A stretch of DNA of 57,311 nucleotides from Theionarchaea archaeon (GTDB taxonomy: Archaea > Methanobacteriota_B > Thermococci > Methanofastidiosales > SZ-28-30): positions 1-57,311 of the forward strand of contig JACVGW010000009.1 of assembly GCA_018992565.1 (NCBI GenBank). The letters run 5' to 3'. Positions within the stretch are counted from its first letter, which is position 1; each line of letters begins with the position of its first letter. The position numbers and the translations under genes were made by a program. The notes beneath the pieces are model-generated. The model searched no databases. It saw nothing but the letters and a program-made list of their open reading frames with translations, and was not told where the DNA came from. This document shows positions 23,360 to 51,816 of this stretch, piece after piece.

Positions 23360-23361
23360 CT

Positions 23362-33203: not shown

Positions 33204-33675
33204 ATAGACACCTACGAAGACACATCACTCCCAGTGCCGCTTTGTTGACCTGTGATATTCTGAAGAGTGATAGAGCTCCAGCAATCCACGTATCCGTAAA
33301 TGAATTGTGGTCTCCATCTTGGGCACAAGAGGTACTCGACAGAATCCAGATGCATTCATATAGGTTTGCCATACTTCAAGAGCAGTTACTTTTGAGGTGG
33401 AGCCCATGAAAGGACTAGTCTTTGATCCACGCAGGATACATCCCCTGTGAGACCCTGCGCTCTTCTGCCGGCTCTGCTTATCCGTTCTCACGCACACAGA
33501 GACTCTCTCCCGGATGAGTCGCCGTTTTTCCATGACGTTACCATGAGCACAGCCTGACTCCCACGTAATTTCAGCAGTTAATTTCCAAAAAAAACGACCT
33601 TTTATCCCTGAAAACTCATATAAACTTTCCTGACAAGAAGTCACATCTATGTGCTCTGTAATAAGAGGTGAAAAC

Positions 33676-34260: not shown

Positions 34261-34265
34261 CTATC

Positions 34266-35647: not shown

Positions 35648-36349
35648 ATGGCAGAGGTATCACAGAGACCCTGGGAAGCTGCGTACAGTAAGGGAGTAGG
35701 CATAGTGGAGAGACCTGCGTTTCTTACCTATCTGGCAGCTGAGATGATGAAGAGGGAAACCCTCAAGAGCGTACTGGATATTGGCTGTGCCGCAGGCAGA
35801 AATTCAGTCTTCCTGGCGAGAGAAGGATTTGATGTCGTGGGCATTGAACCACAGTCAACTATTCTGGAAGTAGCACGCAGCAAAGTATCTGATGAGGGTG
35901 CAAAGCCACGGCTTCTGCTGGGAGACCTGGTTGATCTTCCCTTCAAGGAGTCATCATTTGATGCTGTCCTGTGTTTATATGTCCTCATGTTCCTCCCAGT
36001 GGTGAAATTGGCCACGTGCGTGCGGAATATTTTTCAAGTCCTTCGGGACTCAGGAATGGCATTTTTTGCTTTCTATTCTCCTGAAGACGCAAGTTTTGAA
36101 ATGGGAGAATGTCTCCATGAGAACACCATACGATGGGACAGGAGGATGGGCCCCTGGGCAGGAATTGAAGCACACTATTTCACTCACGAGGAAATTCTTC
36201 ACCTTTTCAACACAGTTGAGATTCTATCTCTTCACCTGGTAACGCAGAGGGAAACACATGATGGAGTACCCCATGTACATAGGTTCTGGCAGGTTATTTG
36301 CAGAAAAGACTCCACAACCTGTACTCCCGTGAAAGAGAGAACAGGGTGA
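35648..36349 (+). CDS. Class I SAM-dependent methyltransferase (island-associated)
   Basis: 'VLDIGCAAGR', 'LPFKESSFDAVLC'; begins 23 nt after rSAM-1. Confidence 0.88.
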   Translation: MAEVSQRPWEAAYSKGVGIVERPAFLTYLAAEMMKRETLKSVLDIGCAAGRNSVFLAREGFDVVGIEPQSTILEVARSKVSDEGAKPRLLLGDLVDLPFKESSFDAVLCLYVLMFLPVVKLATCVRNIFQVLRDSGMAFFAFYSPEDASFEMGECLHENTIRWDRRMGPWAGIEAHYFTHEEILHLFNTVEILSLHLVTQRETHDGVPHVHRFWQVICRKDSTTCTPVKERTG

Positions 36350-36371: not shown

Positions 36372-37538
36372 TCAGAGGCTTCTTCTTCCTGGTGGTACAG
36401 AACATTGCGGATCTGGCATGAATGGATCACCATAGTATCCGTAGGAAATGCATGAGGCCCCTCCAGAGCAGAGGTATGGAGCATTGGTATTGAAATAGCA
36501 GGTCTGGCACTTCCCTTTGACGTGCTTTGACTTCCGTCGGAGTTTCCACAGGAGAGGGTGGCCCCATATGTCCTGGATGTCTTGTGTCAGGATATTGCCT
36601 ATAGGAATGGGAAGTCTCCGACATGGATAGACACTACCATCTTCCATGACATTGATGATATTCTTACCAATGTTGCCACCGATTCCGCATGAAACTCCAT
36701 TCTTGGCGTGATTTGATGTATCAGCAGGGTCTTGGTATATGACAGGCCAGTCACATCGAGAGCGAGTGAGCACGGGCTTGGGAATAAGGGGCGCAGCTTC
36801 TCTCGTCATGGAATCAAGATCGTCGCTGAGGTTCCTGTATAGAGCATACGTCTCCTGAGAAGTCAGCATTGTGTTCAGCATCTCTTTCCCCCTTCCCCAG
36901 GGCACGAGGCGAGTCACTGTCAATACATCCACATCTAGTTCCTTTGCCAGGGCCATAATGTGGAAGGCATCTTTGTAGTTGCCCTTATGAACAACAAAGT
37001 GCATATGGACCTCCAGTGATGTGAGAGTCAGTGTCCTGATAGCCTGTATCGCTTCCTGGAATCTCCCGCTGCCCCGAATTCTATCATGGGTTTCAGCCGA
37101 AACACCGTCCACACTGATTTGAATATAATTGACAGCTCTGTTTTCCTCGAGTCTATCAGCAAGTGTCCTGGTGGTGGTAGATCCATTGGACAGGACTGCA
37201 ACATGGACGGGAGTCAGGTGATCTTCAACATAATCCTGCAAGTAGGCAAGGATATCCCAGAAGTGAGGTGAAATTGTGGGCTCCCCTCCAGATATCCAGA
37301 TATAGGGAGTTCTTCCCCACTTCTTCATGGTTGTCAGGAACTTGTCAATCACGAGCATACACTGATCAAGTGGCATGTCATAGTGCGGTTCATCTTCATT
37401 GTAGCAATGTCTGCAGCGCAGGTTACACCGACCGGTGATCTGAAATTGCATAACAAAGAACTTCCTCCTGTCAGTTCTCTCAGTTGTCCTGATATCTCTC
37501 TTTCTCGAGACGTAACCTGGTTCACTCGGTTCTCTCAT
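36372..37538 (-). CDS. Radical SAM/SPASM protein without RRE (rSAM-2, class II)
   Basis: 'MQFQITGRCNLRCRHCY', GGEP, 'TRLVPWGRG', 'RCDWP'; SPASM 'YPCRRLP...CQTC...CSGGASC...DPQC'. Confidence 0.9.
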   Translation of the reverse strand: MREPSEPGYVSRKRDIRTTERTDRRKFFVMQFQITGRCNLRCRHCYNEDEPHYDMPLDQCMLVIDKFLTTMKKWGRTPYIWISGGEPTISPHFWDILAYLQDYVEDHLTPVHVAVLSNGSTTTRTLADRLEENRAVNYIQISVDGVSAETHDRIRGSGRFQEAIQAIRTLTLTSLEVHMHFVVHKGNYKDAFHIMALAKELDVDVLTVTRLVPWGRGKEMLNTMLTSQETYALYRNLSDDLDSMTREAAPLIPKPVLTRSRCDWPVIYQDPADTSNHAKNGVSCGIGGNIGKNIINVMEDGSVYPCRRLPIPIGNILTQDIQDIWGHPLLWKLRRKSKHVKGKCQTCYFNTNAPYLCSGGASCISYGYYGDPFMPDPQCSVPPGRRSL

Positions 37539-38907
37539 GAGGTATTCCCTCTCTCCATTTTCCTCTCATCTCGTAAAGAAACTGCAGGTATGAATTGACC
37601 CAGGAGTCTGTGATGTCTCGCGGTAGTGGGCATATTGGATTCTCAAAAGACCCCGTTGTCTGGAAAGCTTCGTATGCGCAGCCTGAGCCGCAGAGCAACC
37701 CATACTTACATCTCCTGCACTGCTCAATACGTGCTACATTCCTGGTTCTCATTTTCTGACGTTCTTCGTCATAGAGTTCGAATGTTGGGGAATATCTGCC
37801 GATTTCATGTTGCAGGACAGTGCACGAATAGATTATCCCTTCAGGGTCAAATACAAATCCGTATGGCGTATAGCAGCAGTTGACAGACAGCAGGTCCTCT
37901 CTTGCTTCGAATTTTCGAGACGCAGAGAGCTTCAACCATGAGTCAAAGAAATTTGTGAAGGTATTATAGAAGTTGAAGAGTCGAGTTGAAGGAAATTTCC
38001 TGTGTAATTCCATGAGTCTTTCCAGCATGTCATACCATTTCAAAAAATAGGGATATTCTGAGCTCACGAATTTTATTGTACTGACTACAAATGAGAGATG
38101 CCTGTCTTCATGCCATCCTCGAGATATCACAAAGTCTGCAACCTCAGGCAAATACTCTATGTTCTGGCTATCTGCATTGAACTTCAGTACTATGTTCACA
38201 TGTTTACGTGCTTCCTCTATATTCTGCACGATAGACTCAAATGTCCCACTGCCATCTCTTCTGATTCGTCGTTTGTCATGAATTCGCTGAGGACCATCCA
38301 GGGATACCTTAACCGGTATCTGATATTTTCTCAGCAGCGGAAGATATACATCCATATCCACTCCATTTGTGGTTATGCTGAGAAGGTTCATCTTCCTCTT
38401 TGCAGCCTCATGAAGAATTGAAGAGACTATGTCTTCATGTGCGGGCAGCAGAGGTTCCCCTCCTGTCAGGGACAATTGGGAAGAGGTGATCCCTTCCTGA
38501 TCAAAGAGCTTATCAAGGGCAGCACTGAACAAATCAATGGGCAGCTTCTTTGAGGGTGAGTCATTCTTTATATCAGATCGTAATCTCCGGAAGCAGTAGA
38601 CGCACTTCAGCTGGCAATCGTAGGAAGGTATTGCAATACATACTGCTATCTTCCTCCATGTCGCTGCCTCTTTTTGGTGCAGATCTTCTACGAGTGCTTC
38701 ATCCTCGCGATAGTCTTCGACTATGTAATGATTTCTTTTTAGGAATTCTTGAGTATCTTCCTGTCCTCCCCCGGTTCTATCGGCGTCTGGGCATGTGAGT
38801 ACTCTAATGACATCCTCATCGACTTCGTGCATCGTTCCTCGAAGGAAGTTCATTAGGAGATACTTCCCTTCCGAGACTTTACAGTAATGAGTGTACGGGC
38901 TGATCAT
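37522..38907 (-). CDS. Radical SAM/SPASM peptide maturase with N-terminal RRE (rSAM-3)
   Basis: CQLKCVYC, GGEP; SPASM 'DPEGIIYSC...CRRCKYGLLCGSGC...PIC'. ATG 38907 after GGAGG, directly downstream of precursor P1. Confidence 0.9.
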   Translation of the reverse strand: MISPYTHYCKVSEGKYLLMNFLRGTMHEVDEDVIRVLTCPDADRTGGGQEDTQEFLKRNHYIVEDYREDEALVEDLHQKEAATWRKIAVCIAIPSYDCQLKCVYCFRRLRSDIKNDSPSKKLPIDLFSAALDKLFDQEGITSSQLSLTGGEPLLPAHEDIVSSILHEAAKRKMNLLSITTNGVDMDVYLPLLRKYQIPVKVSLDGPQRIHDKRRIRRDGSGTFESIVQNIEEARKHVNIVLKFNADSQNIEYLPEVADFVISRGWHEDRHLSFVVSTIKFVSSEYPYFLKWYDMLERLMELHRKFPSTRLFNFYNTFTNFFDSWLKLSASRKFEAREDLLSVNCCYTPYGFVFDPEGIIYSCTVLQHEIGRYSPTFELYDEERQKMRTRNVARIEQCRRCKYGLLCGSGCAYEAFQTTGSFENPICPLPRDITDSWVNSYLQFLYEMRGKWREGIPHERTE

Positions 38908-38920
38908 CCTACTCTCCTCC

Positions 38921-38933
38921 AAAAAAAGAAAAA
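38921..38933 (-). terminator. Oligo-T tract between P1 and rSAM-3 (probable leaky archaeal terminator)
   Basis: TTTTTCTTTTTTT on the minus strand, 10 nt after the P1 stop. Confidence 0.45.
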
Positions 38934-38943
38934 TGTGGCAAGG

Positions 38944-39093
38944 CTAAAACCACACCATGCTACAATGGCACTCCTGGCCTAGGCACGCACAGCATGCGCA
39001 GCCACAAATACCGCACGGATTGTTATCTGGGGTAGTGCCTTCGATGTTAATGGTTATTCCTTGCCACGTTTTGCCTACTTCCTTGATTTTCAT
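38944..39093 (-). CDS. RiPP precursor P1, 49 aa, 8 Cys: MKIKEVGKTWQGITINIEGTTPDNNPCGICGCACCACLGQECHCSMVWF
   Basis: Hand-translated. RBS AAGGTGAG, TATA CTTATAAG at 39133-39140, Cys-free leader plus Cys-dense core, first gene of the rSAM-3/rSAM-2 operon. Confidence 0.85.
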   Translation of the reverse strand: MKIKEVGKTWQGITINIEGTTPDNNPCGICGCACCACLGQECHCSMVWF

Positions 39094-39475: not shown

Positions 39476-40447
39476 TCAAAGGTTCTTTGCTATATGATAT
39501 TCAATGATAGCATGTTCTTCACTGTGGATTATCTCTTTTTTCAGCAGCTTATTTGTCAATGAGAGCAGACAGGGTTGGAACCCCTGGAATCCTTTGAAGT
39601 CGTTGCTTCTGACAATGTCCTTCTTCAGATGTGCGAGCACAAATAGTCTGTCTGAAACTCTGAAGAAAAGACTTGATGTAGGAATCTGGGAAAACAGGTC
39701 TATGATAAAGTCCTCGTACTCTGTTCGAAAACAGAAGAGGTAGGGATCATATTCTGAGATTCCTTCAGGGAAGTAACTGGTGGTGACAGTGCAGCACGTG
39801 GGCAATTTTGCCAGGAACTTGTAAACCTTCGCTGTAGTGATCAAATGCTCTCTCATTACGGGAATGAACGTTTTCCTCAGGTTATGCCTGAAATACGTCA
39901 GTAGGTTCTCATCTTCTGAATCCCACTCTGCGGTCTCATTCCAATGTGTCCTTATGGCACATTGGGGGTTATATCTCAGAGGGCTAAAATCGTCTATCTT
40001 ATTCCTGATGGTTTCAAGCGCTTGATTCCATGAGCAGTCTGGAGCGTAGGACATGTAGTAATCGGAACGAGGAGCTTCTACCAGGATTTCCCCACTAATG
40101 TCCACTCTTTCTTTTGAAATAATCCATGAATTTGCAAACCCAGTCATTTTCGCATGATAGGATATATTTGAGTCTTTTTCAAGACGTGTGTACGTTTCGA
40201 GAGGATCCTTTGCACTACAAAAAGAAATGTATTCCTTCATGTTAGCATATGAACGCTTCCTGACATGAGGACCCAGTATGTGACTTCCTTCCATTGCTTC
40301 TTCTATTCTCCTGCTCGCGGTGCGGGGATCCACGCCAAGAGCAGCTGCTATCTCTTTCTTCTTGATTCGAGGGTTCTTGAACCACAGAATTTCATACAGC
40401 CTCCTATACTGCTTCATCCTATCCTCAAGACTGATGAGCATTTTCAC
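39476..40447 (-). CDS. ~320-aa winged-HTH putative transcription regulator, paralog A
   Basis: N-term 'NPRIKKKEIAAALGVDPRTASRRI' is an Lrp-like HTH; paralogous over its full length to 50851-51816. Confidence 0.7.
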   Translation of the reverse strand: MKMLISLEDRMKQYRRLYEILWFKNPRIKKKEIAAALGVDPRTASRRIEEAMEGSHILGPHVRKRSYANMKEYISFCSAKDPLETYTRLEKDSNISYHAKMTGFANSWIISKERVDISGEILVEAPRSDYYMSYAPDCSWNQALETIRNKIDDFSPLRYNPQCAIRTHWNETAEWDSEDENLLTYFRHNLRKTFIPVMREHLITTAKVYKFLAKLPTCCTVTTSYFPEGISEYDPYLFCFRTEYEDFIIDLFSQIPTSSLFFRVSDRLFVLAHLKKDIVRSNDFKGFQGFQPCLLSLTNKLLKKEIIHSEEHAIIEYHIAKNL

Positions 40448-40946
40448 TTCCTCCCTTCTTCGAAACAGGAATGCTACTACTGATCTGCAGATAAACCATC
40501 GAATGAGATAGATATCATGCTGCTCATGCCATCTGAGTCTTTTCCAGGTTCTTCTTCTCTCAGTCTCCAGCTCCTCACTTCACTCGGTTTTGATTGTATA
40601 TGTTGAATTCCTACTATTAGATGTAGTAGCTAGTGTTTCTTTTCCTTTTGATATTTATATCTATTTCCCAAACCTCATTGGTATTTTTTTTTAAAGGGAG
40701 ATTTTGTAGGGATTTCCTTCAACCAAGACTCTTTCAAAGGGATTTGATGAATTTATTCCCCCTCTTACAGTCACAAAGGTGAGGAGGTCACACACATCGT
40801 TCCACACGGATCATGGATCTCAGCTCGTATTTGCTATAGTTGCCCAGTATCTCATCTCAGCGTAATCGCTGATAGAGAAACAGGGAGGCATAGACTACGA
40901 GAATAAAAGAACATGTGTCTTGAACCGTTGAGACTGAACCTGCTGC

Positions 40947-40984
40947 AAAAAATTACGTTCTGAGCATTAAGAAATCATATAAAC
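40947..40984 (+). promoter_or_regulatory. P2 promoter: A-tract plus BRE/TATA (CATATAAAC)
   Basis: A-tract starts at 40947, CATATAAAC at 40976-40984, 132 nt before the P2 ATG; same layout at other island promoters. Confidence 0.55.
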
Positions 40985-41107
40985 TACAGGAACCACTATC
41001 AATAGAAAGTAATTCTTCAAGATGCCCGCCCGATTCTCCAACTTTTTGCATCCTGAAATAGTGGGCTCCTGTAAGAATAGTGAAAAACAGAAAAGAGGTG
41101 ATACAGC

Positions 41108-41272
41108 ATGAAAGCAATCTCACTAAACAAGAAGCTGTGGACAGATGTGACTATGGACAGTCTCGATTTTGTGTCTCCAGACTGTGAGGGACCTCTGATC
41201 AATGGTTGCGGAGGAGGCGGCTGCTATTTCAGTCCGTGTCCGCCCTGGATTTGGCCATGTAACTTCTTTTAG
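41108..41272 (+). CDS. RiPP precursor P2, 54 aa, 5 Cys: MKAISLNKKLWTDVTMDSLDFVSPDCEGPLINGCGGGGCYFSPCPPWIWPCNFF
   Basis: Hand-translated. RBS GAGGTGA, T-tract after the stop, paralog of P3 with mostly synonymous leader differences. Confidence 0.9.
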   Translation: MKAISLNKKLWTDVTMDSLDFVSPDCEGPLINGCGGGGCYFSPCPPWIWPCNFF

Positions 41273-41278
41273 ATTCAC

Positions 41279-41296
41279 TTTTTTTCTCTTTTTCTT
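41279..41296 (+). terminator. Oligo-T terminator after P2
   Basis: TTTTTTTCTCTTTTTCTT just after the stop codon. Confidence 0.55.
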
Positions 41297-41599
41297 CTGA
41301 GAGTTGTTGAGGGATTCTGTGTGGATGCTAATTCTGAAAGTTCCAGGAAGGTACTATCGGGTTTCAATAGTCTTTCCTTGTCAAAAGTCATCAAGAAAGG
41401 AGGGAACCCGCTTTCACTTATTCTTCCTCCTCCTGAAACCAGAAGGGGGAGAGGCAACATGCATGAGAATTTTTCCCGGAAAAAATACGCATTCCAGTGG
41501 CTGACAAATCATATAAGTATGAAGTGCCATCCCTCACCATACTGGAGGACAGCCACCCTCTTGTCCACAGGAGAAGAAGAGCTTCCCATCAGTGTTGGA

Positions 41600-41812
41600 G
41601 TGAATATCATGAGAATGAGCACATACTGCATTGCAGTACAGGCAGATGAGGATGAATACCTGCTCATCAATTCCTTAACAGGAGCTGTTGATGTTGTGGA
41701 TACTGATGTTATCAACCTACTCCAGACTGACCTCTCTCAGGGCGATCCTTCAATCCTCAACTTTCTTCAAGAGAGAGGACATATTACAGATGCCTCTTCT
41801 CAAGAGGAATTC
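41600..41812 (+). repeat. 213-bp inverted repeat, copy 1 (RBS plus RRE of rSAM-4)
   Basis: 41600-41700 is identical to the reverse complement of 50164-50264; 16 mismatches over the next 112 bp (manual alignment). Confidence 0.92.
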
Positions 41813-42961
41813 AGCCACATGGAAGACTTCTATAGAGGAGTTCGTCCAGGAATCTGCAACCGTAAGAGACACATCATCATACCAACGTACAAGTGTAACC
41901 TGCGGTGTACGTATTGTTGGGAAAGCGCCCTATATAAGAATGGAGCATCCTGGATGGAGAAGACTCTCTCTTTCCAGGAGGTTGATTCACTCTTTGAGGC
42001 CGTTGGAGAACTCGACAAGGGAGTACAGCAGCTGGAACCTCTCATATACTTTGGAGGAGAACCTATGCTCCCCGAGAATGTAAATCTCATAGCCCATATG
42101 ATGAAAGAAGGCACAGAAAGGGGATACGAGCACTATTTCGTGACCAATGGCGTCACTATTCCGGACTATCTGGACTTGTTAGTATCCCATCCAATTAAAG
42201 GTATTCAGATAACAGTGGATGGAATGCAGTCAACTCATGATTCGCGAAGGAAGGGTCCAAGGGGCGAAGGTTCCTTTCATCGGATTGTGGAGGGAGTGGA
42301 GCTTCTGAGAGATCACAGCATCAAGACATATATCCGGGTGAATGTTGATAAACTGAACATCAATTCTATTGGGGAGCTGGCTTCTTTCTTTAAAGAATAT
42401 GGATGGCATGATGATGCTTATCTTACCATGTATCTTGCTCCTGTCTTCCCACATGGATGTGGCGGTTACTCCAAAGCGTTCACTCGAGAAGCATCCATAT
42501 CAGGTCTTATATCTCTGTGGAACAACCATGATGTATGGGACGTCTTCAAGAAAGGAATCAGTGATTTTCATCCGGTCGAGTCTGCTCTCAGGGGTGAGGC
42601 GTGGAGCCCTCAGTTCTTCAACTGCGGCGCTCATTGTGACCAGCTCTTCTTTGATGCTCACGGCAGCATATACACGTGCTGGGAAGCTGTGGGAGAAACC
42701 CAGCATTGCGTGGGGCGGTTTATTCCTCACCTGCAGTTCAATGAAAACTACAAGAAATGGATGGAGAGGACTGTCTTCACTATTGAAAAGTGCAGGAGCT
42801 GTGAACTTGCTTTCCTCTGTGGAGGAGGATGCGCTTATGATGCTTATGAGCAGCATCATACGATCTCAGAACCAACCTGCGGGCATGCTGAGAAAGTGTT
42901 AAGAGAATACATTCCCTTCTACTACAACTATGTGCTTCGAGGCAATTCACATTCGAAGTGA
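41609..42961 (+). CDS. Radical SAM/SPASM peptide maturase with N-terminal RRE (rSAM-4)
   Basis: CNLRCTYC, FGGEP; SPASM 'CGAH...IYTC...CRSCELAFLCGGGC...PTC'. Start set at ATG 41609 by homology to rSAM-8. Confidence 0.9.
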   Translation: MRMSTYCIAVQADEDEYLLINSLTGAVDVVDTDVINLLQTDLSQGDPSILNFLQERGHITDASSQEEFSHMEDFYRGVRPGICNRKRHIIIPTYKCNLRCTYCWESALYKNGASWMEKTLSFQEVDSLFEAVGELDKGVQQLEPLIYFGGEPMLPENVNLIAHMMKEGTERGYEHYFVTNGVTIPDYLDLLVSHPIKGIQITVDGMQSTHDSRRKGPRGEGSFHRIVEGVELLRDHSIKTYIRVNVDKLNINSIGELASFFKEYGWHDDAYLTMYLAPVFPHGCGGYSKAFTREASISGLISLWNNHDVWDVFKKGISDFHPVESALRGEAWSPQFFNCGAHCDQLFFDAHGSIYTCWEAVGETQHCVGRFIPHLQFNENYKKWMERTVFTIEKCRSCELAFLCGGGCAYDAYEQHHTISEPTCGHAEKVLREYIPFYYNYVLRGNSHSK

Positions 42962-43085
42962 TTTATGGGAATTATTTTCGCTGGATTCAATGGAGGTGAA
43001 GAGGGATAATGTGCTTTGCAGTCTGAGCCAGACGAAAGCAATCTGGTATCATACATGGGTTCCAACTACTTTCTATGGTGAATGA

Positions 43086-44237
43086 CTAGTGAAGAACGTG
43101 ATTCTCCCTATCTGTACCTGCAGGTGCCTGAGAGGGGTCCACGGGACATTGCGGGTCTGGCTGGAAGGGGTCATTGTACACTGCATACGCAATACAGGAT
43201 GCACCTCCGCTGCAGATACGGGGAGCTTCTACGTTGAAAAAGCACTCCTGACACTTGCCCTGGACAAATCTGTGTTTTCTCCGGAATTTCCACAACAGGG
43301 GATGCTGCCAGATCGTCATGAGATCCTCTTCAAAGACATTCCCTATTTTGATGGGCATCCGCCTGCAGGGGTACACATCCCCATTTTCCTGAATATTGAT
43401 ATACGATCGCCCCACTCCACATCTGAAGCCATTCTTGGTGGAGGCCTCAGGAGTGGAAGGATCAGGGTAAATAATAGGCCAGTCACACCGAGCTCGAGAA
43501 ATGAGGGCCCCTGGTGAGTCATCAGCATCCATGATTTCATCCAGATCATCACTGAGGCTCTTAAAAAGGTTCTTGACTTGTTCTGGAGAGAGCATCTTCT
43601 CATAGAGCTTTCCCCCCCTTCCCCAGGGGACGAGGCGGGTCACTGTCAGTACGTCTGCCCCCAGCGCTTTTGCTACGTCGGGCATGGTGAAAGCATCATC
43701 ATAATTATCTCTGTGAACCACAAAATGAATGTGGGTTTCTATTGCAGTTGGGGTTAGCAGCTCAAGTGCAGCAACTGCTTTCTCAAAACTTCCTTTCCCG
43801 CGTATAGCATCGTGTGTTTCAGCTCGTGCTCCGTCCAGGCTTATCTGTACATATATGTCTAAGGGGTGCTCCTCAAGTCTTTTGACGAATTCCTCTGTGA
43901 AGTTGATTCCGTTGGAGAGAACAGCCACTAATGAATGCGCATTTATTAAGTCCGAGTGGATCTTAATGTAGTCAAGGATGTGCCAGAACTGTGGATGGAG
44001 AGTAGGCTCACCGCCAGTCAGCCAGATAACGGGTGTTCTTTTCCATAGGCAACACAAAGCAAAGAATTGGTCAAGTATGTTTTCACAGCTCTCTACAGGC
44101 ATATCCTGATGATCTTCTGCATCATCATAGCAGTGCGTGCAGCGGAGGTTGCATCGTCCGGTAATTGAAAGTTGCAGTATGAAACCTGCTTCCTCTCTTT
44201 TTTCAGAATGTGAACCTTCACCATATATTTCGTCCAC
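43086..44237 (-). CDS. Radical SAM/SPASM protein without RRE (rSAM-5, class II; paralog of rSAM-2)
   Basis: 'LQLSITGRCNLRCTHCY', 'TRLVPWGRG', 'RCDWP', 'YPCRRMP...CQEC...CSGGASC...DPQC'. GTG 44237 after GGTGA; ATG 44291 is an alternative start. Confidence 0.88.
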   Translation of the reverse strand: MDEIYGEGSHSEKREEAGFILQLSITGRCNLRCTHCYDDAEDHQDMPVESCENILDQFFALCCLWKRTPVIWLTGGEPTLHPQFWHILDYIKIHSDLINAHSLVAVLSNGINFTEEFVKRLEEHPLDIYVQISLDGARAETHDAIRGKGSFEKAVAALELLTPTAIETHIHFVVHRDNYDDAFTMPDVAKALGADVLTVTRLVPWGRGGKLYEKMLSPEQVKNLFKSLSDDLDEIMDADDSPGALISRARCDWPIIYPDPSTPEASTKNGFRCGVGRSYINIQENGDVYPCRRMPIKIGNVFEEDLMTIWQHPLLWKFRRKHRFVQGKCQECFFNVEAPRICSGGASCIAYAVYNDPFQPDPQCPVDPSQAPAGTDRENHVLH

Positions 44238-44642
44238 TTTATCACCACATGATTTTTCCTGACTGTCATTCTCAGCAGATTTCTGCAGCATGGTTCTATA
44301 TGGTTTGGCAAGAGGAGAAATGCTGCTTTTCTTTTGCGCCCTCTTGCAGCTTTCCAAAAGAAAAGAACAGGCAATAGGGGAATATTTCGTCTGTCAGTAA
44401 GGACTCTCTTACCAATATCTGTTTTTATTTTGTTGCGATAGTTATCTGTTGAAAGAATACTATTTGAAGAAGCCACTCCCGTAAAATTTCCGTTATGCCC
44501 CCTGTAGAAAAAACATACAGTCACTGTTTCATAAACTCATATAAGGTTGGTTAGACACTTCTACATAACTGAGAAGAAGGATGCTGGGACAGCCCAGTTT
44601 GTGCTTCAGGAAGACTTTCAGGGCAAGAATGAAGGAGACCTC

Positions 44643-46082
44643 ATGAGAATGAAGGAGCGTGAGAGTATGAAACCTCTAAAGAAAAGCATTGTCATTGATT
44701 TGAAAGATGGAGATTATCTTCTTATCAATCCGTATCGAGGACTCGGTGATGTTGTAGATAAGGAGACTCTCAAAGAGCTTTCTTCTCAAGATGTAGAGAT
44801 TTCCAATGGGACCATGCAGGCTCTTGCACGGAGAGGACATCTGGTAGAGGATGGAGAAGAGGACGACCTTATTCAGGCATTGAGAAGACGTGCCAACAAA
44901 ATGCACACAGAGTCGAAAAAGATCAAAGGTCATGGGATAGTAATAACATATGACTGCAATCTCCGCTGTCCTTATTGTTACGAGAGACATCTGTTTGCAA
45001 AAGAACAGAAGCGCCGTGCCACTATGAGCAGGAAAACTGTAGATATGCTTTTTGAAACAATACAGGTTATTGATTCAGAAGACAACGATGGAGGGGCCTC
45101 GGAGAATCGAGAAGAGAACCCCATGACGCTCATAGGAGGAGAACCTCTGCAGAAAGAGAACTTCTCCATCGTTGAATACATACTCAAAAAAGGTGCAGAG
45201 CTGGGATACCCCTTTTCTATTGTTACCAATGGGGCTGATCTCTCCCATTTTGCTCCCCTCTTATCTCAATATGACATCAAGAAGATCCAGATTACTATTG
45301 ACGGCGTCAAGGAAGTGCACGATAAGAGACGATACCGAAAAGGTAATCGAGGCAGCTTTGATGATATAGTAAAGGGTATAGATGAAGCGCATAAGAATGG
45401 TCTTCCTGTGGTTATTAGAATTAATGCTGATTCTGACAATATCGACAGAGTCCCGGAATTTGCAGAGTTCTACATGGACAAGGGATGGTATCCAGACATA
45501 CCAGCTCACGTATCAAATGTAACAGCCTCGGAGTGTCTGATGTACTCTCCCCTCATTACTGCTGAGCAGTTTACTAAAAAGACTATTGATCTCTTCCTGA
45601 AAGATGAGAGGATGAAAGTCTTCCGGCATTCACTCCTGACTCACAACGATCTCTTGAGACATCTCGTAAGGGACGAGGAGTTTAGCTTGAAGTTCTGGTA
45701 TTGTGGTGCTCAAGTATCAATGCTGATGTATGACCCACTGGGGGACATATATCCCTGCTTTGAAGCCGTCGGCCATGATAGTCAGAAGATTGGAGAATAT
45801 ATTCCAGAATTGAAGTTCAATGAGACCATGAACCAATGGCAGAGTCGAACAGTATTCACCATTCCTGAGTGCCTGGAATGTAACCTGGCATTTATCTGTG
45901 GCGGAGGATGTGCATACGGTGCGATAAGGACTATGGGGTCACTGAACAAGCCCTATTGCGACAGGATGAAATTCATCATTGAACATGAATTTCCCTATGT
46001 ATATCACCTGATGAAGACGGAAGAGGGGGGTTTCAAAAAAGCAGAGTCACAGGGCGGAATTCAGAAGCCCTCGCATCCTTGA
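44643..46082 (+). CDS. Radical SAM/SPASM peptide maturase with N-terminal RRE (rSAM-6)
   Basis: 'YLLINPYRG', CNLRCPYC, GGEP; SPASM 'WYCGA...DIYPC...CLECNLAFICGGGC...PYC'. Start 44643 or 44667. Confidence 0.9.
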   Translation: MRMKERESMKPLKKSIVIDLKDGDYLLINPYRGLGDVVDKETLKELSSQDVEISNGTMQALARRGHLVEDGEEDDLIQALRRRANKMHTESKKIKGHGIVITYDCNLRCPYCYERHLFAKEQKRRATMSRKTVDMLFETIQVIDSEDNDGGASENREENPMTLIGGEPLQKENFSIVEYILKKGAELGYPFSIVTNGADLSHFAPLLSQYDIKKIQITIDGVKEVHDKRRYRKGNRGSFDDIVKGIDEAHKNGLPVVIRINADSDNIDRVPEFAEFYMDKGWYPDIPAHVSNVTASECLMYSPLITAEQFTKKTIDLFLKDERMKVFRHSLLTHNDLLRHLVRDEEFSLKFWYCGAQVSMLMYDPLGDIYPCFEAVGHDSQKIGEYIPELKFNETMNQWQSRTVFTIPECLECNLAFICGGGCAYGAIRTMGSLNKPYCDRMKFIIEHEFPYVYHLMKTEEGGFKKAESQGGIQKPSHP

Positions 46083-46228
46083 TTGCATTCTAAAAGGCAC
46101 TTCAGAGTAGGACAATTATCCAGAGAAGAGAAAAACGTGCATTTCGGTGGTCAACAATCACATACGTTGTGGGGATTCAACCTGCAGGGAGATGTGACAG
46201 ACCAGTCAGGTGAGGAGGTTGATTCAAT

Positions 46229-46855
46229 ATGAAAGAAAATCAACAAAAGTATGTCCGATGGTCAGAAAATTGTGTCTGGCAACCAGTTGGAGAAATGCTT
46301 TTCATTGCGAAAGTTCTCCACCATAATGAAGGACTCACCCCAGCCCGGGAGAAGAATGACGGCAAGAAGTTGAATGGAGCAGGAAAAGACATCTGGGACC
46401 TTTGTGACGGTACCAGAACCATGGAGGAGATTGTGAATCAATTGATGGAAGAGTATACAGGTGACCCTGAAGAGATTCACAGTGATGTACAGAATGCAGT
46501 CTCAAAACTCATAGAAGAAGAATTCCTGGTTTGGGGAGAGAAATCAGAGAAATGTCACCCCCTTGAGATTAAGATGAAGGAGTATCCGACCTGGGATGGC
46601 AATGTGTTGTGGAACCAGGTTGATAATGAAGTTGTTGTCATTAATAATGTAACAGGACTGGACTATGGGTTCAGGGACGACGTGGCTGAGACATGGAAGC
46701 TCTGCAGTGGGAAGCAGTCGCTGGACGAAATCCTCAGTATACTAGAGGAAAGAGGAATCATCAATGAAGAAAATCCGCCTGTTCGATTCAAACTATTGAT
46801 CAAGCAATTCATCAACATTGGCGTTGTCACCATGAGAAAGGAGCCTGGTTCCTGA
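46229..46855 (+). CDS. Tandem PqqD/RRE peptide-binding protein 2
   Basis: 'LNGAGKDIWDLCDGTRTMEEIVNQLMEEY' and 'AETWKLCSGKQSLDEILSIL'. RBS GAGGAGGT. Confidence 0.85.
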   Translation: MKENQQKYVRWSENCVWQPVGEMLFIAKVLHHNEGLTPAREKNDGKKLNGAGKDIWDLCDGTRTMEEIVNQLMEEYTGDPEEIHSDVQNAVSKLIEEEFLVWGEKSEKCHPLEIKMKEYPTWDGNVLWNQVDNEVVVINNVTGLDYGFRDDVAETWKLCSGKQSLDEILSILEERGIINEENPPVRFKLLIKQFINIGVVTMRKEPGS

Positions 46856-47079
46856 ATGGGAACTGGAATATGAAGCGGATCATGACATATTAGAACGTGA
46901 CCGTCTTCCAGAGCAGAGGATACTACACATTTATTACTTATTTTGGGAACCCGTAAGCCGCACGACGCTTTCTGATTTCATAATAGACAAGGAATATTCC
47001 TATTTCACAGAGAAAATTCACTTTGCAGAGTATTTTCTAGAGGTGAAAGTACATTTCAGAAGCGTTGGTTTTCAACAAG

Positions 47080-47118
47080 AAAATTAGTGCTCTTTAATCG
47101 CAAAAAAATCATATAAAC
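47080..47118 (+). promoter_or_regulatory. P3 promoter: A-tract plus BRE/TATA (CATATAAAC)
   Basis: CATATAAAC at 47110-47118, again exactly 132 nt before the precursor ATG. Confidence 0.55.
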
Positions 47119-47241
47119 ATGACGTTAGAAGGAGAACCGAGGAATATTCCTGGATGCACTGAAGCACCGCTGAGGGCAGAGTGCCCGATACGTGGTGAGT
47201 TTTGAAGTGCAAGAAAACCATGAACCAGGAGGTGATATATC

Positions 47242-47409
47242 ATGAAGGCAATTTCACTGAACAAGAAGCTATGGAGAGATGTGGCCATGGGTGATCTTGA
47301 TTTCGTATCTCCAGACTGTGATGTACCGCTGGTGACTGGCTGTGGGTCTATACCGTGCCCCTCCCTTTGCATACTGCATTGCTATCCCCATATGTGTATT
47401 CACTTCTGA
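47242..47409 (+). CDS. RiPP precursor P3, 55 aa, 6 Cys: MKAISLNKKLWRDVAMGDLDFVSPDCDVPLVTGCGSIPCPSLCILHCYPHMCIHF
   Basis: Hand-translated. RBS AGGAGGTGA; 27/35 N-terminal residues identical to P2. Confidence 0.9.
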   Translation: MKAISLNKKLWRDVAMGDLDFVSPDCDVPLVTGCGSIPCPSLCILHCYPHMCIHF

Positions 47410-47566
47410 GCAACAGCTTTTTACAACATCCCTGCCCCCATATCGCCCATTGCAGCTTTTGCGGTAGGGATGGTAACCTGTGATGCATTGCGAGAGACAC
47501 AAAGAAAACTTCACAGCAACTCAGAACCCACAAGACTGAAGAATGATTCCAATGAAAGATGTTGTA

Positions 47567-48925
47567 TTATTCTCCCGGGATATTTTCCTGGGTTCTTTTT
47601 CTTTCTCCCTGAATCATTTTCCCGAACAAGGGATAATAGACATCTACTGCTTGGTTTGAGAACTCGCAATCAGGCTTCAGAAGGTCCCCCTTGGTCTGGG
47701 CAGCATAGTTGCCACAACCTCCCCCACAGATCATGGCATACCTGCAGTGTCTGCAAGATTTCATATTGAAAATTGTTCTTTCTTTCCATTGATTGAATCG
47801 CTCATTGAAGGTGACCTCAGGATAGTATGTGCCAACTGCCTCTTCTTTATTGCCTAGAGTGTCAGTACAGAGGTAGATATCTCCGAAAGGATCGAACCAT
47901 GTCTGCGATAGATAGGAACGGCAGTAACTCATTTGGGGAAGCCACTTATCTACAAAACCAAGTTTTTGGGCTATTGGACCTAACCCTCTCAGGAAAACGT
48001 CTCTGAGAACCTCATCCCCCAACAAGAACTGCAGGTCTTCTTTTTTCAGGTTATGCATAAAATTGTAGCAACCTCCTGGTGTATGATGGCGAACTGGCGA
48101 GAGGTAGATCATATTGTCTCTCTGATCCCATCCTTTCTCGTGGGCAAATTCCATAAAACTGGGCAATGTCCTCACTGTGGAATGATCAATATTGACTCTC
48201 ACATACACAGTAAAGCCTGCTTCTGCGAGCTGATCTATAGATTCAACAATCTGGCAAAAAGAACCAGTTCCATCAGCTCTTTTCTTCCTCCTGTTGTGGA
48301 TTTCCTCTATTCCATCTACTGTGATTTGGAGTGATGTGATCTTGCTCTCAAGGAGGAGAGGGAGAAAGAGGCTGCTCTCCAATCCATTGGTTACAATAAT
48401 GAAGGATTTATCACAGCGCGTTCCTCTTGTCAGGATGTACTCGATGAGTTCATAGTTGCTTGAGATGAGAGGTTCTCCACCCAGTAAATGTATGGGTGCT
48501 CTTGTATGAGGATTCAGAGTTTCCATTGCCTTGAAAGCTGCATCCACCTGCGAATGAGTCATTTTTCGCTGTAACCAGGGTTCATCTCGTGTGAAGACAG
48601 ATGAAACATAGCAGTAGTCACACCGCATGTTGCAGTCATACGTGGGTATAAGAGCAAACAGTGTGTGGTCTCTGTGCAGACTTTGAATTGATTCCAGGCT
48701 CTTGAATGCTTTTTCAGTTTCCTCTTTTGGAGAGAGTTCTGTGAGAAACCCCTGGGAAACGAGAGCAGACACTTCTTCTGAAGTCTCTTGTTCAGGATTC
48801 ACACCATTGAGGATTCGCAGTATTTCCTCTGGGCCAAAGAGGATAGCCCCTGTGAATGTATTAACAAAAAGAAATTCTCTGTTCTGGAGAGGTATCACCA
48901 GGACGTATCGACTACGTCTGAGCAA
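47567..48925 (-). CDS. Radical SAM/SPASM peptide maturase with N-terminal RRE (rSAM-7)
   Basis: CNMRCDYC, LGGEP; SPASM 'SYC...DIYLC...CRHCRYAMICGGGC...PDC'. Probable start TTG 48925 after GGAGGGAGG, coupled to the rSAM-8 stop. Confidence 0.88.
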   Translation of the reverse strand: MLRRSRYVLVIPLQNREFLFVNTFTGAILFGPEEILRILNGVNPEQETSEEVSALVSQGFLTELSPKEETEKAFKSLESIQSLHRDHTLFALIPTYDCNMRCDYCYVSSVFTRDEPWLQRKMTHSQVDAAFKAMETLNPHTRAPIHLLGGEPLISSNYELIEYILTRGTRCDKSFIIVTNGLESSLFLPLLLESKITSLQITVDGIEEIHNRRKKRADGTGSFCQIVESIDQLAEAGFTVYVRVNIDHSTVRTLPSFMEFAHEKGWDQRDNMIYLSPVRHHTPGGCYNFMHNLKKEDLQFLLGDEVLRDVFLRGLGPIAQKLGFVDKWLPQMSYCRSYLSQTWFDPFGDIYLCTDTLGNKEEAVGTYYPEVTFNERFNQWKERTIFNMKSCRHCRYAMICGGGCGNYAAQTKGDLLKPDCEFSNQAVDVYYPLFGKMIQGERKRTQENIPGE

Positions 48926-50255
48926 GGTCCTCCCTCCGTGATCTATATAGATGGGGGACGACCACATTGAGAATTTCATGATATTCCAAGCAGAGAGGCC
49001 TGTCAAGTGACCCATATTTCTCCAGAGCTGCAAACCCACACCCCCCACCACATAAGAGAGCATACTTGCATTCTTTACATTCTGGAATGGTGAATATCGT
49101 TCTTTCTCTCCATTGACTGTATTTTTCATTCCACTTTAGTTCAGGATCGTACCTGCCGACTCTTCCAGCTTCGTCACCCACATGTTCAAAACAGACGTAG
49201 AGATCTCCGAAGGGATCATAAATAATCATGTCGTCGTTTGCCTCGCAGTACCAGAAGCGGGGAGCCCCTAATTCTCCCTTGAGGAAGAGCCTTTCAAGTA
49301 CTGCGATTCCTTTGTGGTCAAAAGAAACGGTGTTCAACTCTTGGTGAGAAGTTGCGTTGGAAACAACAGCCGTATACACATCCTTCCTTTGCATGGAATG
49401 CTTGTAAGTGCCACAGGTTTTCTCGAAGATAGGTGAGAAGTGCATGGAAAGGAGAGGATTATCCACCCATCCTTTTTTCCTGGCGAAATCTACTACTTCA
49501 GAGAGGGCACCAAGATTTTCACTATCAAGATTTGTCCTGAGAAAGACTCTCAGATTCTCCTTGAGTGCTGCGTCTATTCCAGCTGCAATCTGGTCAAAAG
49601 ATCCAGTACCATCCTTTCTTATTCGTCGTTTATCATGGAGGTTCTTTGGTCCGTCAATGGTGACCTGAAGGGTGACATTCCGGCCCCGCAGCAGGTCCAT
49701 ATACTGACATAGTGATACCCCATTTGTGAGTATGATGAAGGAATGTCCAAGCGATTCTCCCCTTTCCAGGATTTCTTCGACTGCCGGCATAGTTTTTTCC
49801 ATCAACGGCTCTCCACCATACAGGGCGATTCTACCTTTCTCAGTTCCATCAACTTCAGCAATGGCCTCGAATACCTTATCAATAAGTTCCTGACTGATGA
49901 CTGTGCTCAACCACTGGGTTCCTTTTTTCCGGAGATCTGAAAGAAAGCAGTATGGGCACACCAGGTTGCAATCATAGGTTGGAATGATCATATGTGTATG
50001 CAGGTTCTTCCTGTTTTCTGTAAACCTCTCATAGAGAGTTCGTATGTCTTCGAATTCCTCTTCAGGAGATGCTTGCGTTATATGTCCTCTCTCATGAAGG
50101 AAGTTGAGGATTGAAGGCTCCCCCTGGGAGAGGTCACTCTGAAGCAGGTTGATAACATCAGTGTCCACAACATCAACAGCTCCTGTTAAGGAATTGATGA
50201 GCAGGTATTCATCCTCATCTGCCTGTACTGCAATGCAGTATGTGCTCATTCTCAT
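48912..50255 (-). CDS. Radical SAM/SPASM peptide maturase with N-terminal RRE (rSAM-8)
   Basis: CNLVCPYC, YGGEP; SPASM 'WYC...DLYVC...CKECKYALLCGGGC...PLC'. ATG 50255 after AGGTGA. Confidence 0.9.
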   Translation of the reverse strand: MRMSTYCIAVQADEDEYLLINSLTGAVDVVDTDVINLLQSDLSQGEPSILNFLHERGHITQASPEEEFEDIRTLYERFTENRKNLHTHMIIPTYDCNLVCPYCFLSDLRKKGTQWLSTVISQELIDKVFEAIAEVDGTEKGRIALYGGEPLMEKTMPAVEEILERGESLGHSFIILTNGVSLCQYMDLLRGRNVTLQVTIDGPKNLHDKRRIRKDGTGSFDQIAAGIDAALKENLRVFLRTNLDSENLGALSEVVDFARKKGWVDNPLLSMHFSPIFEKTCGTYKHSMQRKDVYTAVVSNATSHQELNTVSFDHKGIAVLERLFLKGELGAPRFWYCEANDDMIIYDPFGDLYVCFEHVGDEAGRVGRYDPELKWNEKYSQWRERTIFTIPECKECKYALLCGGGCGFAALEKYGSLDRPLCLEYHEILNVVVPHLYRSRREDLAQT

Positions 50256-50264
50256 GATATTCAC
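50052..50264 (-). repeat. 213-bp inverted repeat, copy 2 (RBS plus RRE of rSAM-8)
   Basis: Reverse-complement match to 41600-41812. Confidence 0.92.
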
Positions 50265-50850
50265 CTTTTTCTTCATCCAGCCCGCACCAGTCCTACGGAA
50301 AAGACATTTACGAGGAGTTCTTTCATGAAAAGTCAACCTATTATTATCCTTGCAACAATAAACATCAGAGAATACTTATATGTATTTCCAGGGCACGAAA
50401 TGTATTTATTTTCTGGCAAAGGATCAAGAAGGGTTCCCTGTGATCTAATTCGTATCTCCACCTGGCATCCGTATTCACCTCCAGGTATGAGAAAGAAGTG
50501 CCAGGGCCCTATCCTTTCACTGCATGTTCCCGTCCCGGGGTCTGGAGGAGACAGTCTGATGTAGGACATGAGGCATATGAACAAGTTGTATTGTCACTAT
50601 CCTCATTGGTTCTGTTCGTGTGTTCAACTTGGATTCTTTCATTCTCAGGACGTAGTCCTCACACCCTTTGTGTGGAACTGCTCCCTTCTACAGCTCCCAC
50701 CTTTTCCAACCCCCCTTGCATGGGTTGTCCTTCTTCTATTGACATAGTTAGATTCTCATTCGATAAGTTTATAAGGTCTTGATAAGAATATTCTTAACGA
50801 ATGAGAATGATCTCACAAAACAGAATGTTTTAAAGGAGGACTGAGCGTTA

Positions 50851-51816
50851 ATGGATACAAGTAAAGAAGTCAGGAGGAGACATTACCGTGCGATCTACGA
50901 ACTTTTCTGGTCAGAGAACGCCCGAATCCACCTGAAGGATATTGCATCGAGACTCCGGGTCAATCCCCGTACGGCACGGAGAAGAGTAGAAGAAGCTTTT
51001 AGCCAGGGCTACGTTACAGGACCTCAGCTCAGGAAACGGTCATATGCGAATATGAAGGAATATGTTTGCTTCGTCAATTGTGAAAACCCCACTGAAGCAT
51101 ATCTCGATCTTAGCCAGGATGCAGCCGTTGTATATCACGCACGACTGGCAGGATTCGCCAGTTTATGGGTTAGTTCAACAAGAAAAGTGACCATTGATGG
51201 CACTCCCGTGATTAAAGGCCTGCGTTCAGACTATCATGTGTCATTTGCGCCCTATCGTTCATGGGAAAAGGCAATAGAAGTCATGCGGGGAAAGATTGAA
51301 TCCTTTCATCCAGAGTGTTATGAACCCACATCGCACATTAGCTCCCACTGGGATGAAACCATAACGTGGGATGAAGAAGATGAAAAGCTCTTTCGATACT
51401 TCGAGTCTGACTTGAGGAGGATTTTCGTACCTGTCATGAAGAAACATCTCATCAGCACAGGGAAAATCTACCAGTTCCTGGAAAGACTTCCTCAATGCTG
51501 TACTGTCACAACAAGCTTCTTTCCAGAGGGGATCTCAGCTTACGACCCTTATCTCTTTGTTTTTGGGACTGAATATGAGGATTTCATCGTTGATCTCTTT
51601 TCACAGATGCCGACATCAGCTTTCTTTTTCAAGGTCTCAGACATGCTCTTTCTTCATGCGCATGTAAAGAAGGACTTGATGAGATGCGAGGATTTGGGTG
51701 CTCCTAGCATACGTCAGCTGCCCATCCCGGGTCTCATCAGTGAACTCCTCAAGAAGGGAATCATTGAGAGTGAAGAACACGCTGTGGTTGAGTATCACTG
51801 GACAAAGAGTCTCTAG
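50851..51816 (+). CDS. ~320-aa winged-HTH putative transcription regulator, paralog B
   Basis: HTH 'NARIHLKDIASRLRVNPRTARRRV'; shares 'RKRSYANMKEY' and 'FPEGIS.YDPYLF.F.TEYEDFI.DLFSQ' with paralog A. Confidence 0.7.
   Translation: MDTSKEVRRRHYRAIYELFWSENARIHLKDIASRLRVNPRTARRRVEEAFSQGYVTGPQLRKRSYANMKEYVCFVNCENPTEAYLDLSQDAAVVYHARLAGFASLWVSSTRKVTIDGTPVIKGLRSDYHVSFAPYRSWEKAIEVMRGKIESFHPECYEPTSHISSHWDETITWDEEDEKLFRYFESDLRRIFVPVMKKHLISTGKIYQFLERLPQCCTVTTSFFPEGISAYDPYLFVFGTEYEDFIVDLFSQMPTSAFFFKVSDMLFLHAHVKKDLMRCEDLGAPSIRQLPIPGLISELLKKGIIESEEHAVVEYHWTKSL

Follow-up and report, generated by a model that had tools for sequence, protein, structure and literature searches.

Two paralogous candidate precursor peptides with a conserved leader and divergent Cys-rich tails in a radical SAM/SPASM gene cluster of a Theionarchaea archaeon

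Prochlorosins combine a conserved leader with hypervariable cores, are encoded by several genes per genome, and become lanthipeptides through one promiscuous enzyme. Among other peptides made on ribosomes and modified after translation (RiPPs), a sactipeptide link joins a Cys sulfur to an alpha carbon, while a ranthipeptide link joins it to the beta or gamma carbon of an acceptor residue; the known ranthipeptides have Asp, Asn, Thr, or Gln acceptors after Cys. In archaea, almost no modified peptides have been characterised. According to an archaeal survey, only two lanthipeptides, both from Haloarchaea, have been functionally characterised in archaea, and the radical-SAM classes have only been predicted (PMC12144867). 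CrpC of Methanococcus voltae, a TIGR04463 member, is an archaeal radical S-adenosylmethionine (SAM)/SPASM enzyme with a RiPP recognition element (RRE), and its ranthionine links were shown experimentally in 2026; the substrate in that study is a protein, namely the 28.8-kDa CrpA with 10 repeats of a 17-residue motif and a C-X-X-Q/D motif, and CrpA and CrpB have a common N-terminal region and divergent Cys-rich C-terminal parts (PMC13692751). Here, I describe two paralogous genes, P2 and P3, for short Cys-rich peptides with a common leader, which lie in a 57,311-nucleotide stretch of DNA (the window: contig JACVGW010000009.1 of assembly GCA_018992565.1, positions 1 to 57,311, forward strand) from an uncultured sediment archaeon of the Theionarchaea.

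P2 and P3 are probably translated and would be precursor peptides of an undescribed archaeal RiPP family with radical SAM maturases. A literature search returned no work on biosynthetic gene clusters of Theionarchaea; in the papers found, radical SAM and Theionarchaea are co-mentioned only in passing, as apparently are Methanofastidiosa and RiPP.

The P2 and P3 genes and their precursor family

The two genes and the signals around them are as follows.

41108-41272, + strand: P2 precursor gene, 54 aa; leader MKAISLNKKLWTDVTMDSLDF; Cys 26, 34, 39, 44, and 51; C-terminus CNFF; family hidden Markov model (HMM) E 8.7e-23
47242-47409, + strand: P3 precursor gene, 55 aa; leader as in P2; Cys 26, 34, 39, 43, 47, and 52; C-terminus CIHF; family HMM E 9.4e-24
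41095-41103, + strand: near-perfect Shine-Dalgarno sequence GAGGTGATA of P2, ending 4 nt 5' of the ATG
47228-47237, + strand: near-perfect Shine-Dalgarno sequence GGAGGTGATA of P3, ending 4 nt 5' of the ATG
41279-41298, + strand: T-rich tract right past the P2 stop codon, archaeal terminator-like
47418-47422, + strand: T5 run past the P3 stop codon
40972-40984, + strand: promoter-like motif AAATCATATAAAC, 13 nt, an A-rich stretch plus a TATA-like box, with its start 136 nt 5' of the P2 ATG
47106-47118, + strand: identical 13-nt motif, with its start 136 nt 5' of the P3 ATG
33613-33625, + strand: third copy of the motif with 1 mismatch, 5' of the cluster's first PqqD gene

A preliminary description, made from the sequence alone, had taken P2 and P3 for paralogous RiPP-type precursors under purifying selection. 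Both open reading frames (ORFs) were recovered in an ORF check on the + strand at the above positions with the sequences it quoted, and a codon-by-codon count agreed with its figures: codons 1-35 comprise 16 identical, 11 synonymous, and 8 nonsynonymous pairs, leaving 27 of the 35 residues identical. At codon positions 1, 2, and 3, the identity over these codons is 32/35, 30/35, and 20/35, respectively. BLASTP aligned the two peptides with 28/39 identities (E 2e-19). For codons 2-35, the Nei-Gojobori method (NG86) gave a synonymous rate (dS) of 1.07, a nonsynonymous rate (dN) of 0.13, and a ratio (omega) of 0.12. Purifying selection thus acts on the leader, as had been claimed. The tails diverge as described earlier, with C26, C34, C39, and a terminal C-x-x-F kept (C-N-F-F in P2 and C-I-H-F in P3). 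The aromatic and His residues of the tails are Y, F, W, W, F, and F in P2 and H, Y, H, H, and F in P3.

The two loci were compared in a fixed register at an offset of 6134 nt. The leader is 78% identical, while the 103 nt from the upstream motif to the ribosome-binding site are 28%, the tail codons 25%, and the 200 nt past the stop codons 22% identical; a repeat search matched 41095-41211 with 47229-47345 at 79%. The similarity of P2 and P3 is beyond chance and the flanking DNA is at random identity. Since only the 13-nt motif, the ribosome-binding site, and the leader codons are alike between such flanks, selection has kept these three islands. The spacing from motif to ATG is exactly 136 nt at both genes, although the DNA in between is at random identity. 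The motif AA(A/C)TCATATAAAC with at most 1 mismatch occurs 3 times in the window, where 0.09 occurrences are expected, always on the + strand and within the cluster, and the 10-nt core of the 13-nt motif occurs 9 times in the 2.8-Mb genome. The motif is read here as a putative shared promoter element. The ribosome-binding sites of P2 and P3 take the form (G)GAGGTGATA. A GGAGGTGA-type ribosome-binding site and an oligo-T tract after the stop codon were found in all 10 inspected genes of the family described below, and also in P1, another small gene of the cluster. A TTTAAATA-like box lies about 35 nt 5' of the ATG in most inspected genes of the family and P1; P2 and P3 are without it. A conserved RNA element in the 5' untranslated regions of P2 and P3 was considered and rejected; the folding from motif to ATG had z values of -0.85 (P2) and -2.46 (P3) with no common structure. 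Rfam had 0 matches in the window.

Are P2 and P3 alone? They are members of an uncurated precursor family, recognisable in the sequences by an MKA..LNKKLWT leader and a Gly/Cys-rich core (hereafter the LNKKLW family). The preliminary description had proposed to scan the source genome and its relatives with a leader HMM, and such a scan turned up 3 more paralogues in this genome and, in public data, 16 peptide clusters. In the genome, the family profile matched 5 genes among 39,925 small ORFs, all at E <= 2e-12: P2, P3, C29:9269-9421, C97:6233-6355, and C30:26636-26776. The next match was P1 (E 0.11), which may be a distant relative of the family. Only 2 of 133 species-representative genomes of the class had a match at E <= 0.001, namely the source and one genome of the same genus with 1 copy; the third genome of the genus, 84% complete, had no match at this threshold. 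A looser scan of the class genomes gave the same true matches, and a search of genome contigs with a narrower family alignment gave 1 locus, in the same-genus genome (Theionarchaea archaeon). A profile search against 1.84 billion representatives yielded 18 matches, 16 of which are peptide clusters of 40-76 aa with the MKA..LNKKLWT leader and, usually, a tail of the form GCG(CG)nCCCPxLC..LIC. P0011 and P0018 were rejected as long unrelated repeat proteins, and P0027 (561 aa, by eye prolyl-tRNA synthetase-like) as a clustering artefact. Metagenome contig L033 has three precursor genes in tandem, and L034 has one precursor followed by three enzymes. Neither Pfam nor NCBIfam had a meaningful match for any of 20 members (no NCBIfam family for 20/20 at E <= 0.01). 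Frameshifts or stop codons in relatives had been named as evidence against real peptides; the C29 gene and its same-genus orthologue (genome G032) are both intact, with an omega of 0.18.

Conservation over 21 aligned members is highest at residues 1-12, moderate to about residue 20, low at 21-32, and rises again at GCG, which in P2 and P3 (residues 33-35) is the conserved start of the Cys-rich part. Since the strong family-wide conservation is confined to residues 1-12, the 35-residue leader of P2 and P3 mirrors a young duplication and not a recognition element. Cys is the sole residue type enriched in every member, with column C39 nearly invariant and C34 kept in most rows. The genes are short, with a conserved leader and a variable tail, and enzymes adjoin them in every locus with enough flank. 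Thus, the earlier view, in which one conserved leader is joined to variable cores as a small natural library, is supported by the purifying selection on the leader, the paralogues, the public peptide clusters, the tandem copies on L033, and the RRE-bearing enzymes around the genes, while the 35-residue extent of the leader is not, and P2 and P3 belong to two cassette architectures rather than one (see below).

P2 and P3 group with P0002 and P0005 in an atypical branch, whose members have an aromatic C-terminus and fewer Cys. The annotation of both P0002 and P0005 is hypothetical protein, and their locus tags are eight apart on a single 57.9-kb contig from a 'Candidatus Methanofastidiosia archaeon' metagenome-assembled genome, whose clade IV enzyme is 80% identical to that of the window. 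P3 differs from P0002 at 2/35 leader and 5/20 tail residues. P2 shares 21/35 leader residues with P0005 and is unalignable with it past residue 35; going by the locus tags, P0005 is presumably the positional counterpart of P2.

The enzyme cluster and its coupling to the precursors

P2 and P3 lie in an 18-kb cluster (33.6-51.8 kb) with six CteB-like radical SAM/SPASM enzymes (type A), two smaller SPASM enzymes (type B), two tandem PqqD proteins, one methyltransferase, and two helix-turn-helix (HTH) proteins.

33649-34260, + strand: tandem PqqD protein
34257-35624, + strand: radical SAM/SPASM enzyme, clade V
35648-36349, + strand: SAM methyltransferase
36372-37538, - strand: type-B radical SAM/SPASM enzyme, the second in the cluster
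37522-38922, - strand: radical SAM/SPASM maturase following P1, in a sister position to the clade serving the LNKKLW family
38944-39093, - strand: P1, gene of a 49-aa Cys-rich peptide (MKIKEVGKTWQG...CGICGCACCACLGQECHCSMVWF) ending in VWF, with its own ribosome-binding site and T tract
39476-40447, - strand: HTH protein, likely a regulator, 53% identical to that at 50851-51816
41609-42961, + strand: radical SAM/SPASM maturase, clade I, directly after P2, with RRE, radical SAM, and SPASM parts; the longest ORF runs from 41321, and the ATG at 41609 fits the orthologues
43086-44357, - strand: type-B radical SAM/SPASM enzyme without an RRE, likely start at about 44291 (401 aa)
44547-46082, + strand: radical SAM/SPASM maturase, clade II
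46229-46855, + strand: tandem PqqD-like protein with two RRE-type repeats, of the peptide chaperone type
47567-49129, - strand: radical SAM/SPASM maturase, clade I', convergent with P3; it probably starts within the ORF
48912-50255, - strand: radical SAM/SPASM maturase, clade IV, 447 aa; the ORF extends to 50336
50851-51816, + strand: HTH protein, likely a regulator, paralogue of the other

No candidate precursor ORF was found 5' of the clade IV enzyme (50336-50851). Elsewhere in the window, a heterodisulfide-reductase-like run (22901-27250: a ferredoxin, a CCG-domain protein, a large Fe-S flavoprotein, and an MvhD/FlpD-like protein) has no apparent connection with the peptide cluster.

CxxxCxxC and at least seven downstream Cys are kept in all 8 radical SAM enzymes of the window. 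In the clade I enzyme, C96, C100, and C103 of the radical SAM motif are invariant among 36 aligned homologues, and so are the SPASM residues C339, C357, C395, C398, C404, C408, and C424. Its orthologues of 56-65% identity come only from uncultured material, one of them named Theionarchaea, while bacterial relatives are below 40%. An AlphaFold2 model of this enzyme (predicted local distance difference test 92.2, predicted template modelling score 0.90) has three strands and three helices at residues 7-84 ahead of the radical SAM barrel. CteB was its top structural match in both Foldseek (E 2e-20) and VIA-align, where chain 5wgg_A aligned at Z 27.4 with a root-mean-square deviation of 3.8 A over 397 positions. 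This alignment spans model residues 4-443 and thus includes the N-terminal RRE; the RRE-less anSME and ChlB align only from residue 81-85. Judged from the model, an N-terminal winged-helix RRE is present and is predicted to bind the leader. CteB is also the best sequence match in the PDB (E 1.7e-16), and TigE, a cyclopropylglycine synthase, is another full-length structural match (Z 22.8).

An NCBIfam scan covered the five type-A enzymes of clades I, I', II, and IV and next to P1; the clade V enzyme was outside it. The top matches are maturases of Cys peptides: CefB (NF038107; 110-168 bits, E 1e-31 to 3e-49, below the cut-off of 600), the CrpC family TIGR04463 (128-150 bits in four enzymes and 84 in the P1-adjacent one, below 525), and PapB (NF047865; 97-132 bits, E 1e-27 to 2e-38, below 340). 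The SCIFF maturase model TIGR03974 scored 68-100 bits, below its cut-off of 425, and there was no SCIFF precursor match. For the type-B enzymes, the nearest models are those of the ACGX system, TIGR04053, and MftC, and the nearest solved structures are SkfB and PqqE. Their scores with MftC (TIGR03962) are 116 and 141 bits, below the cut-off of 265; the mycofactocin precursor ends in Val-Tyr, and the tails here end in NFF and IHF.

The PqqD-like proteins are about 200-230 aa in length, and besides the two of the window there are homologues at C30:24464-25159, L001:2204-2818, and L034:1952-2656. BLASTP comparison revealed an internal second repeat in both window proteins. In four relatives (P0190 and P0192-P0194), a type-B enzyme carries a tandem PqqD homologue as an N-terminal fusion; P0190 matches the window protein at E 9e-24 over residues 6-192.

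The genome, 88% complete at 2.8 Mb, encodes about 30 radical SAM/SPASM paralogues of type A and 7 of type B. A maximum-likelihood tree was made for 35 type-A proteins (30 from the genome and 5 from L034 and L035). A single clade of 20 rows (support 96/88) takes in all 15 enzymes near an LNKKLW precursor; enzymes next to other candidate precursor families branch elsewhere. Thus, enzyme clades track the precursor family. Immediately 3' of the precursor, the window, C29, L034, and L035 have orthologous enzymes (support 100/100). The P3 cassette (clade II, PqqD, P3, then I' and IV in convergent orientation) is a repetition of the C30 cassette (PqqD, clade II, precursor, then convergent type B, I', and IV), and the visible part of the C97 cassette also matches it. 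Thus, P2 and P3 lie in two cassette types despite having the most similar leaders. The tandem PqqD gene adjoins the clade II gene in 4/4 cassettes. A type-B enzyme is present in the clusters of the F/W-ending members (P1, P2, P3, and C30), but not in those of the LIC-ending members (C29, L034, and L035). No convincing precursor was found beside the other type-B enzymes (C140, C50, and C4) or at C62, so the link is not extended past 4 versus 3 loci.

Two enzymes of the cluster have nearly the same recognition domain, encoded by the arms of an inverted repeat.

41600-41812, + strand: inverted repeat arm 1, 213 nt, RRE-coding part of the clade I enzyme
50052-50264, - strand: inverted repeat arm 2, RRE-coding part of the clade IV enzyme

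The arms are 92% identical. At the protein level, the RREs of the clade I and clade IV enzymes are 85% identical, against 34% for the catalytic parts. The public contigs break exactly at this repeat. It is probably the product of gene conversion, which may have kept two enzymes tuned to one leader, and such a conversion tract suggests how a leader and several recognition domains stay compatible.

B12-binding radical SAM enzymes lie inside paralogous cassettes of the LNKKLW family (L001, corresponding to C97, 4262-6082; L033, 1512-2876), a hint that some members are C-methylated. A second candidate precursor family (M.A.LIE.G..., 50-55 aa, 3-4 Cys, strong ribosome-binding sites) is encoded at C105:1845-2003, 2147-2314, and 5525-5686, C52:5213-5365, and C97:464-628, and adjoins a separate radical SAM/SPASM clade. 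Small genes made of repeat units lie directly 5' of radical SAM/SPASM enzymes at C128:10549-10719 and C132:962-1195 (CALEVQPTF x4; FCATLP x3). More small Cys-rich families (MKCEKVE...CPPYPCGCINI; MYI.SEIEEISMEIDQCMCCA) lie beside radical SAM/SPASM genes at C71:19789-19899, 21374-21472, and 21673-21771, and at C4:7390-7467 and 7764-7862.

Predicted maturation and alternative explanations

How might the peptides be made? Each precursor would be transcribed from a small unit of its own. The N-terminal residues, about 20 in number (MKA..LNKKLWT.V..E.LD), would serve as the leader and dock on the N-terminal winged-helix RRE of the neighbouring CteB-like enzymes, on the tandem PqqD protein, or on both. 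The SPASM enzymes would then cross-link the Cys of the Gly/Cys/aromatic-rich tail, most likely by several thioethers, and the clades around P2 and P3 (I, I', II, and IV) may each act on one position or make one link type. The RRE-less type-B enzyme, aided by the tandem PqqD protein, and the methyltransferase may make further changes. One leader would serve many cores, so duplication and fast divergence of the core would lead to a small set of different products. Within this precursor-and-maturase reading, the balance tips slightly towards thioethers as the main chemistry.

Several observations weigh against this reading. No enzyme comes near the curated cut-off of any named maturase family, and therefore the chemistry is not transferable by homology. 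P2 and P3 are atypical family members with fewer Cys and many aromatic residues, and the typical core (GCGCGCGGCCCPxLC..LIC) is without the Asp, Asn, Thr, or Gln acceptors after Cys. No peptidase or transporter gene was found in the window at 33.6-53.8 kb or in the paralogous cassettes examined, so that leader removal and export are unsupported. Over 40900-47500, public contigs from 4 runs of 4 studies agree completely over P2, and so do the 2 that reach P3 over that gene, with no indels listed; these are near-identical strains, which carry no information on selection and therefore exclude only assembly error for the two genes.

The same system may have a main chemistry other than thioethers, such as C-C cyclophane-type links on aromatic residues, epimerisation, methylation, or C-terminal oxidative decarboxylation. 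The aromatic-rich tail of P2 and the aromatic/His-rich tail of P3 would suit such reactions, enzymes that form cyclophanes (YhhB, XyeB, and FxsB; E 1e-12 to 1e-23) are among the weaker NCBIfam matches, and the full-length match to TigE and the affinity of the type-B enzymes to MftC (116-141 bits), PqqE, or SkfB point the same way, as does the presence of a type-B enzyme with the F/W-ending members and its absence with the LIC-ending ones. However, that correlation comprises 4 versus 3 loci only, the strongest matches in both sequence and structure are Cys-directed enzymes, and Cys alone is enriched in every member, with C39 nearly invariant and C34 mostly kept. I regard this alternative as unlikely, though well ahead of the following two. 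The modified peptides might be precursors of intracellular cofactors or redox carriers, or metal binders, like PQQ, mycofactocin, or CrpA, instead of secreted bioactives. PqqD-type chaperones and MftC/PqqE-like type-B enzymes lie in the cluster, no transporter or peptidase gene was found in the searched regions, and the Crp genes are up-regulated on pyrite according to the CrpC study (PMC13692751). Cofactor precursors are conserved, but the tails here differ strongly among paralogues and even between close relatives such as P2 and P0005, and the genes are multiple per genome and stand in tandem on L033; it is hardly probable that the peptides have such a role.

It is more improbable still that P2 and P3 are unmodified small Cys-rich peptides, or chance or regulatory upstream ORFs among radical SAM genes. 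Short ORFs are indeed common, 116 of at least 30 aa being present in 11 kb. However, omega is 0.12 between saturated flanks, a leader-specific profile matches only 5 of the 39,925 small ORFs (next match E 3), the same leader adjoins orthologous enzymes in other genomes and metagenomes, and strong ribosome-binding sites and terminator-like tracts accompany the genes.

The preferred reading, radical SAM-modified precursors with a common leader, may be carried further. It is conceivable, though rather doubtful, that one Theionarchaea genus has a combinatorial maturation system, in which one leader family is served by three RRE types, up to six paralogous SPASM enzymes, and a tandem PqqD protein. 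Gene conversion would match the RREs to the leader, and the fast-evolving tails would become polycyclic products with undescribed links (e.g., Cys to Gly or aromatics) and a modified C-terminal Phe or Trp. If true, it would make this the first radical-SAM family of archaeal peptide natural products with built-in diversification. The locus is a compact and testable set, with two substrates of 54-55 aa that have one leader and different tails, defined enzyme partners, and a confident structural model, and the 16 or so sequence clusters of the family show which positions matter.

Comparison with known systems

The P2/P3 family is a new precursor family with new enzyme subfamilies within the known radical SAM/SPASM-modified Cys-rich peptides. 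The SCIFF system with CteB of Clostridium thermocellum (PDB 5WGG/5WHY) is similar in having an N-terminal RRE, a radical SAM domain, and a seven-Cys SPASM domain, and CteB is the top match in both the full-length structural comparison and the PDB sequence search. A short Cys-rich precursor and a cluster in which no transporter or peptidase was found are further likenesses; SCIFF clusters are not known to carry these genes. In contrast, the enzymes of the window remain far under the TIGR03974 cut-off, and the precursors match no SCIFF model. Moreover, the present system is archaeal and has variable tails and up to six SPASM paralogues per cluster, whereas SCIFF has a conserved precursor and one such enzyme.

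The CefB/CefA ('Cys-every-fifth') system resembles the locus in that NF038107 is the top NCBIfam match of all five scanned type-A enzymes, and a five-residue spacing of Cys recurs in P2 (34, 39, and 44) and P3 (34 and 39; 47 and 52). However, the scores are far under 600 and the precursors match no NCBIfam model; a literature search found no paper on the 'Cys-every-fifth' system. The PapB-type ranthipeptide maturases (NF047865) are likewise radical SAM/SPASM enzymes that form Cys thioethers, but their 330-position model matches only the radical SAM/SPASM part of the enzymes and not the N-terminal domain, and their acceptor motifs are absent from the tails of the window.

CrpC and CrpA are close in another respect, since they are an archaeal RRE-bearing SPASM enzyme and one of two substrates with a shared N-terminus and diverging Cys-rich C-termini. 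TIGR04463 is the second-best NCBIfam match for 4/5 scanned type-A enzymes. In contrast to CrpA, the peptides here are only 40-55 aa in length and their tails are without C-X-X-Q/D; the enzyme scores are also under the cut-off. Finally, the prochlorosin libraries are alike in having several precursor genes with one leader type and hypervariable cores. The difference lies in the enzymes and in the numbers: many paralogous radical SAM enzymes surround the precursors of the LNKKLW family, and only 5 precursor copies are present per genome.

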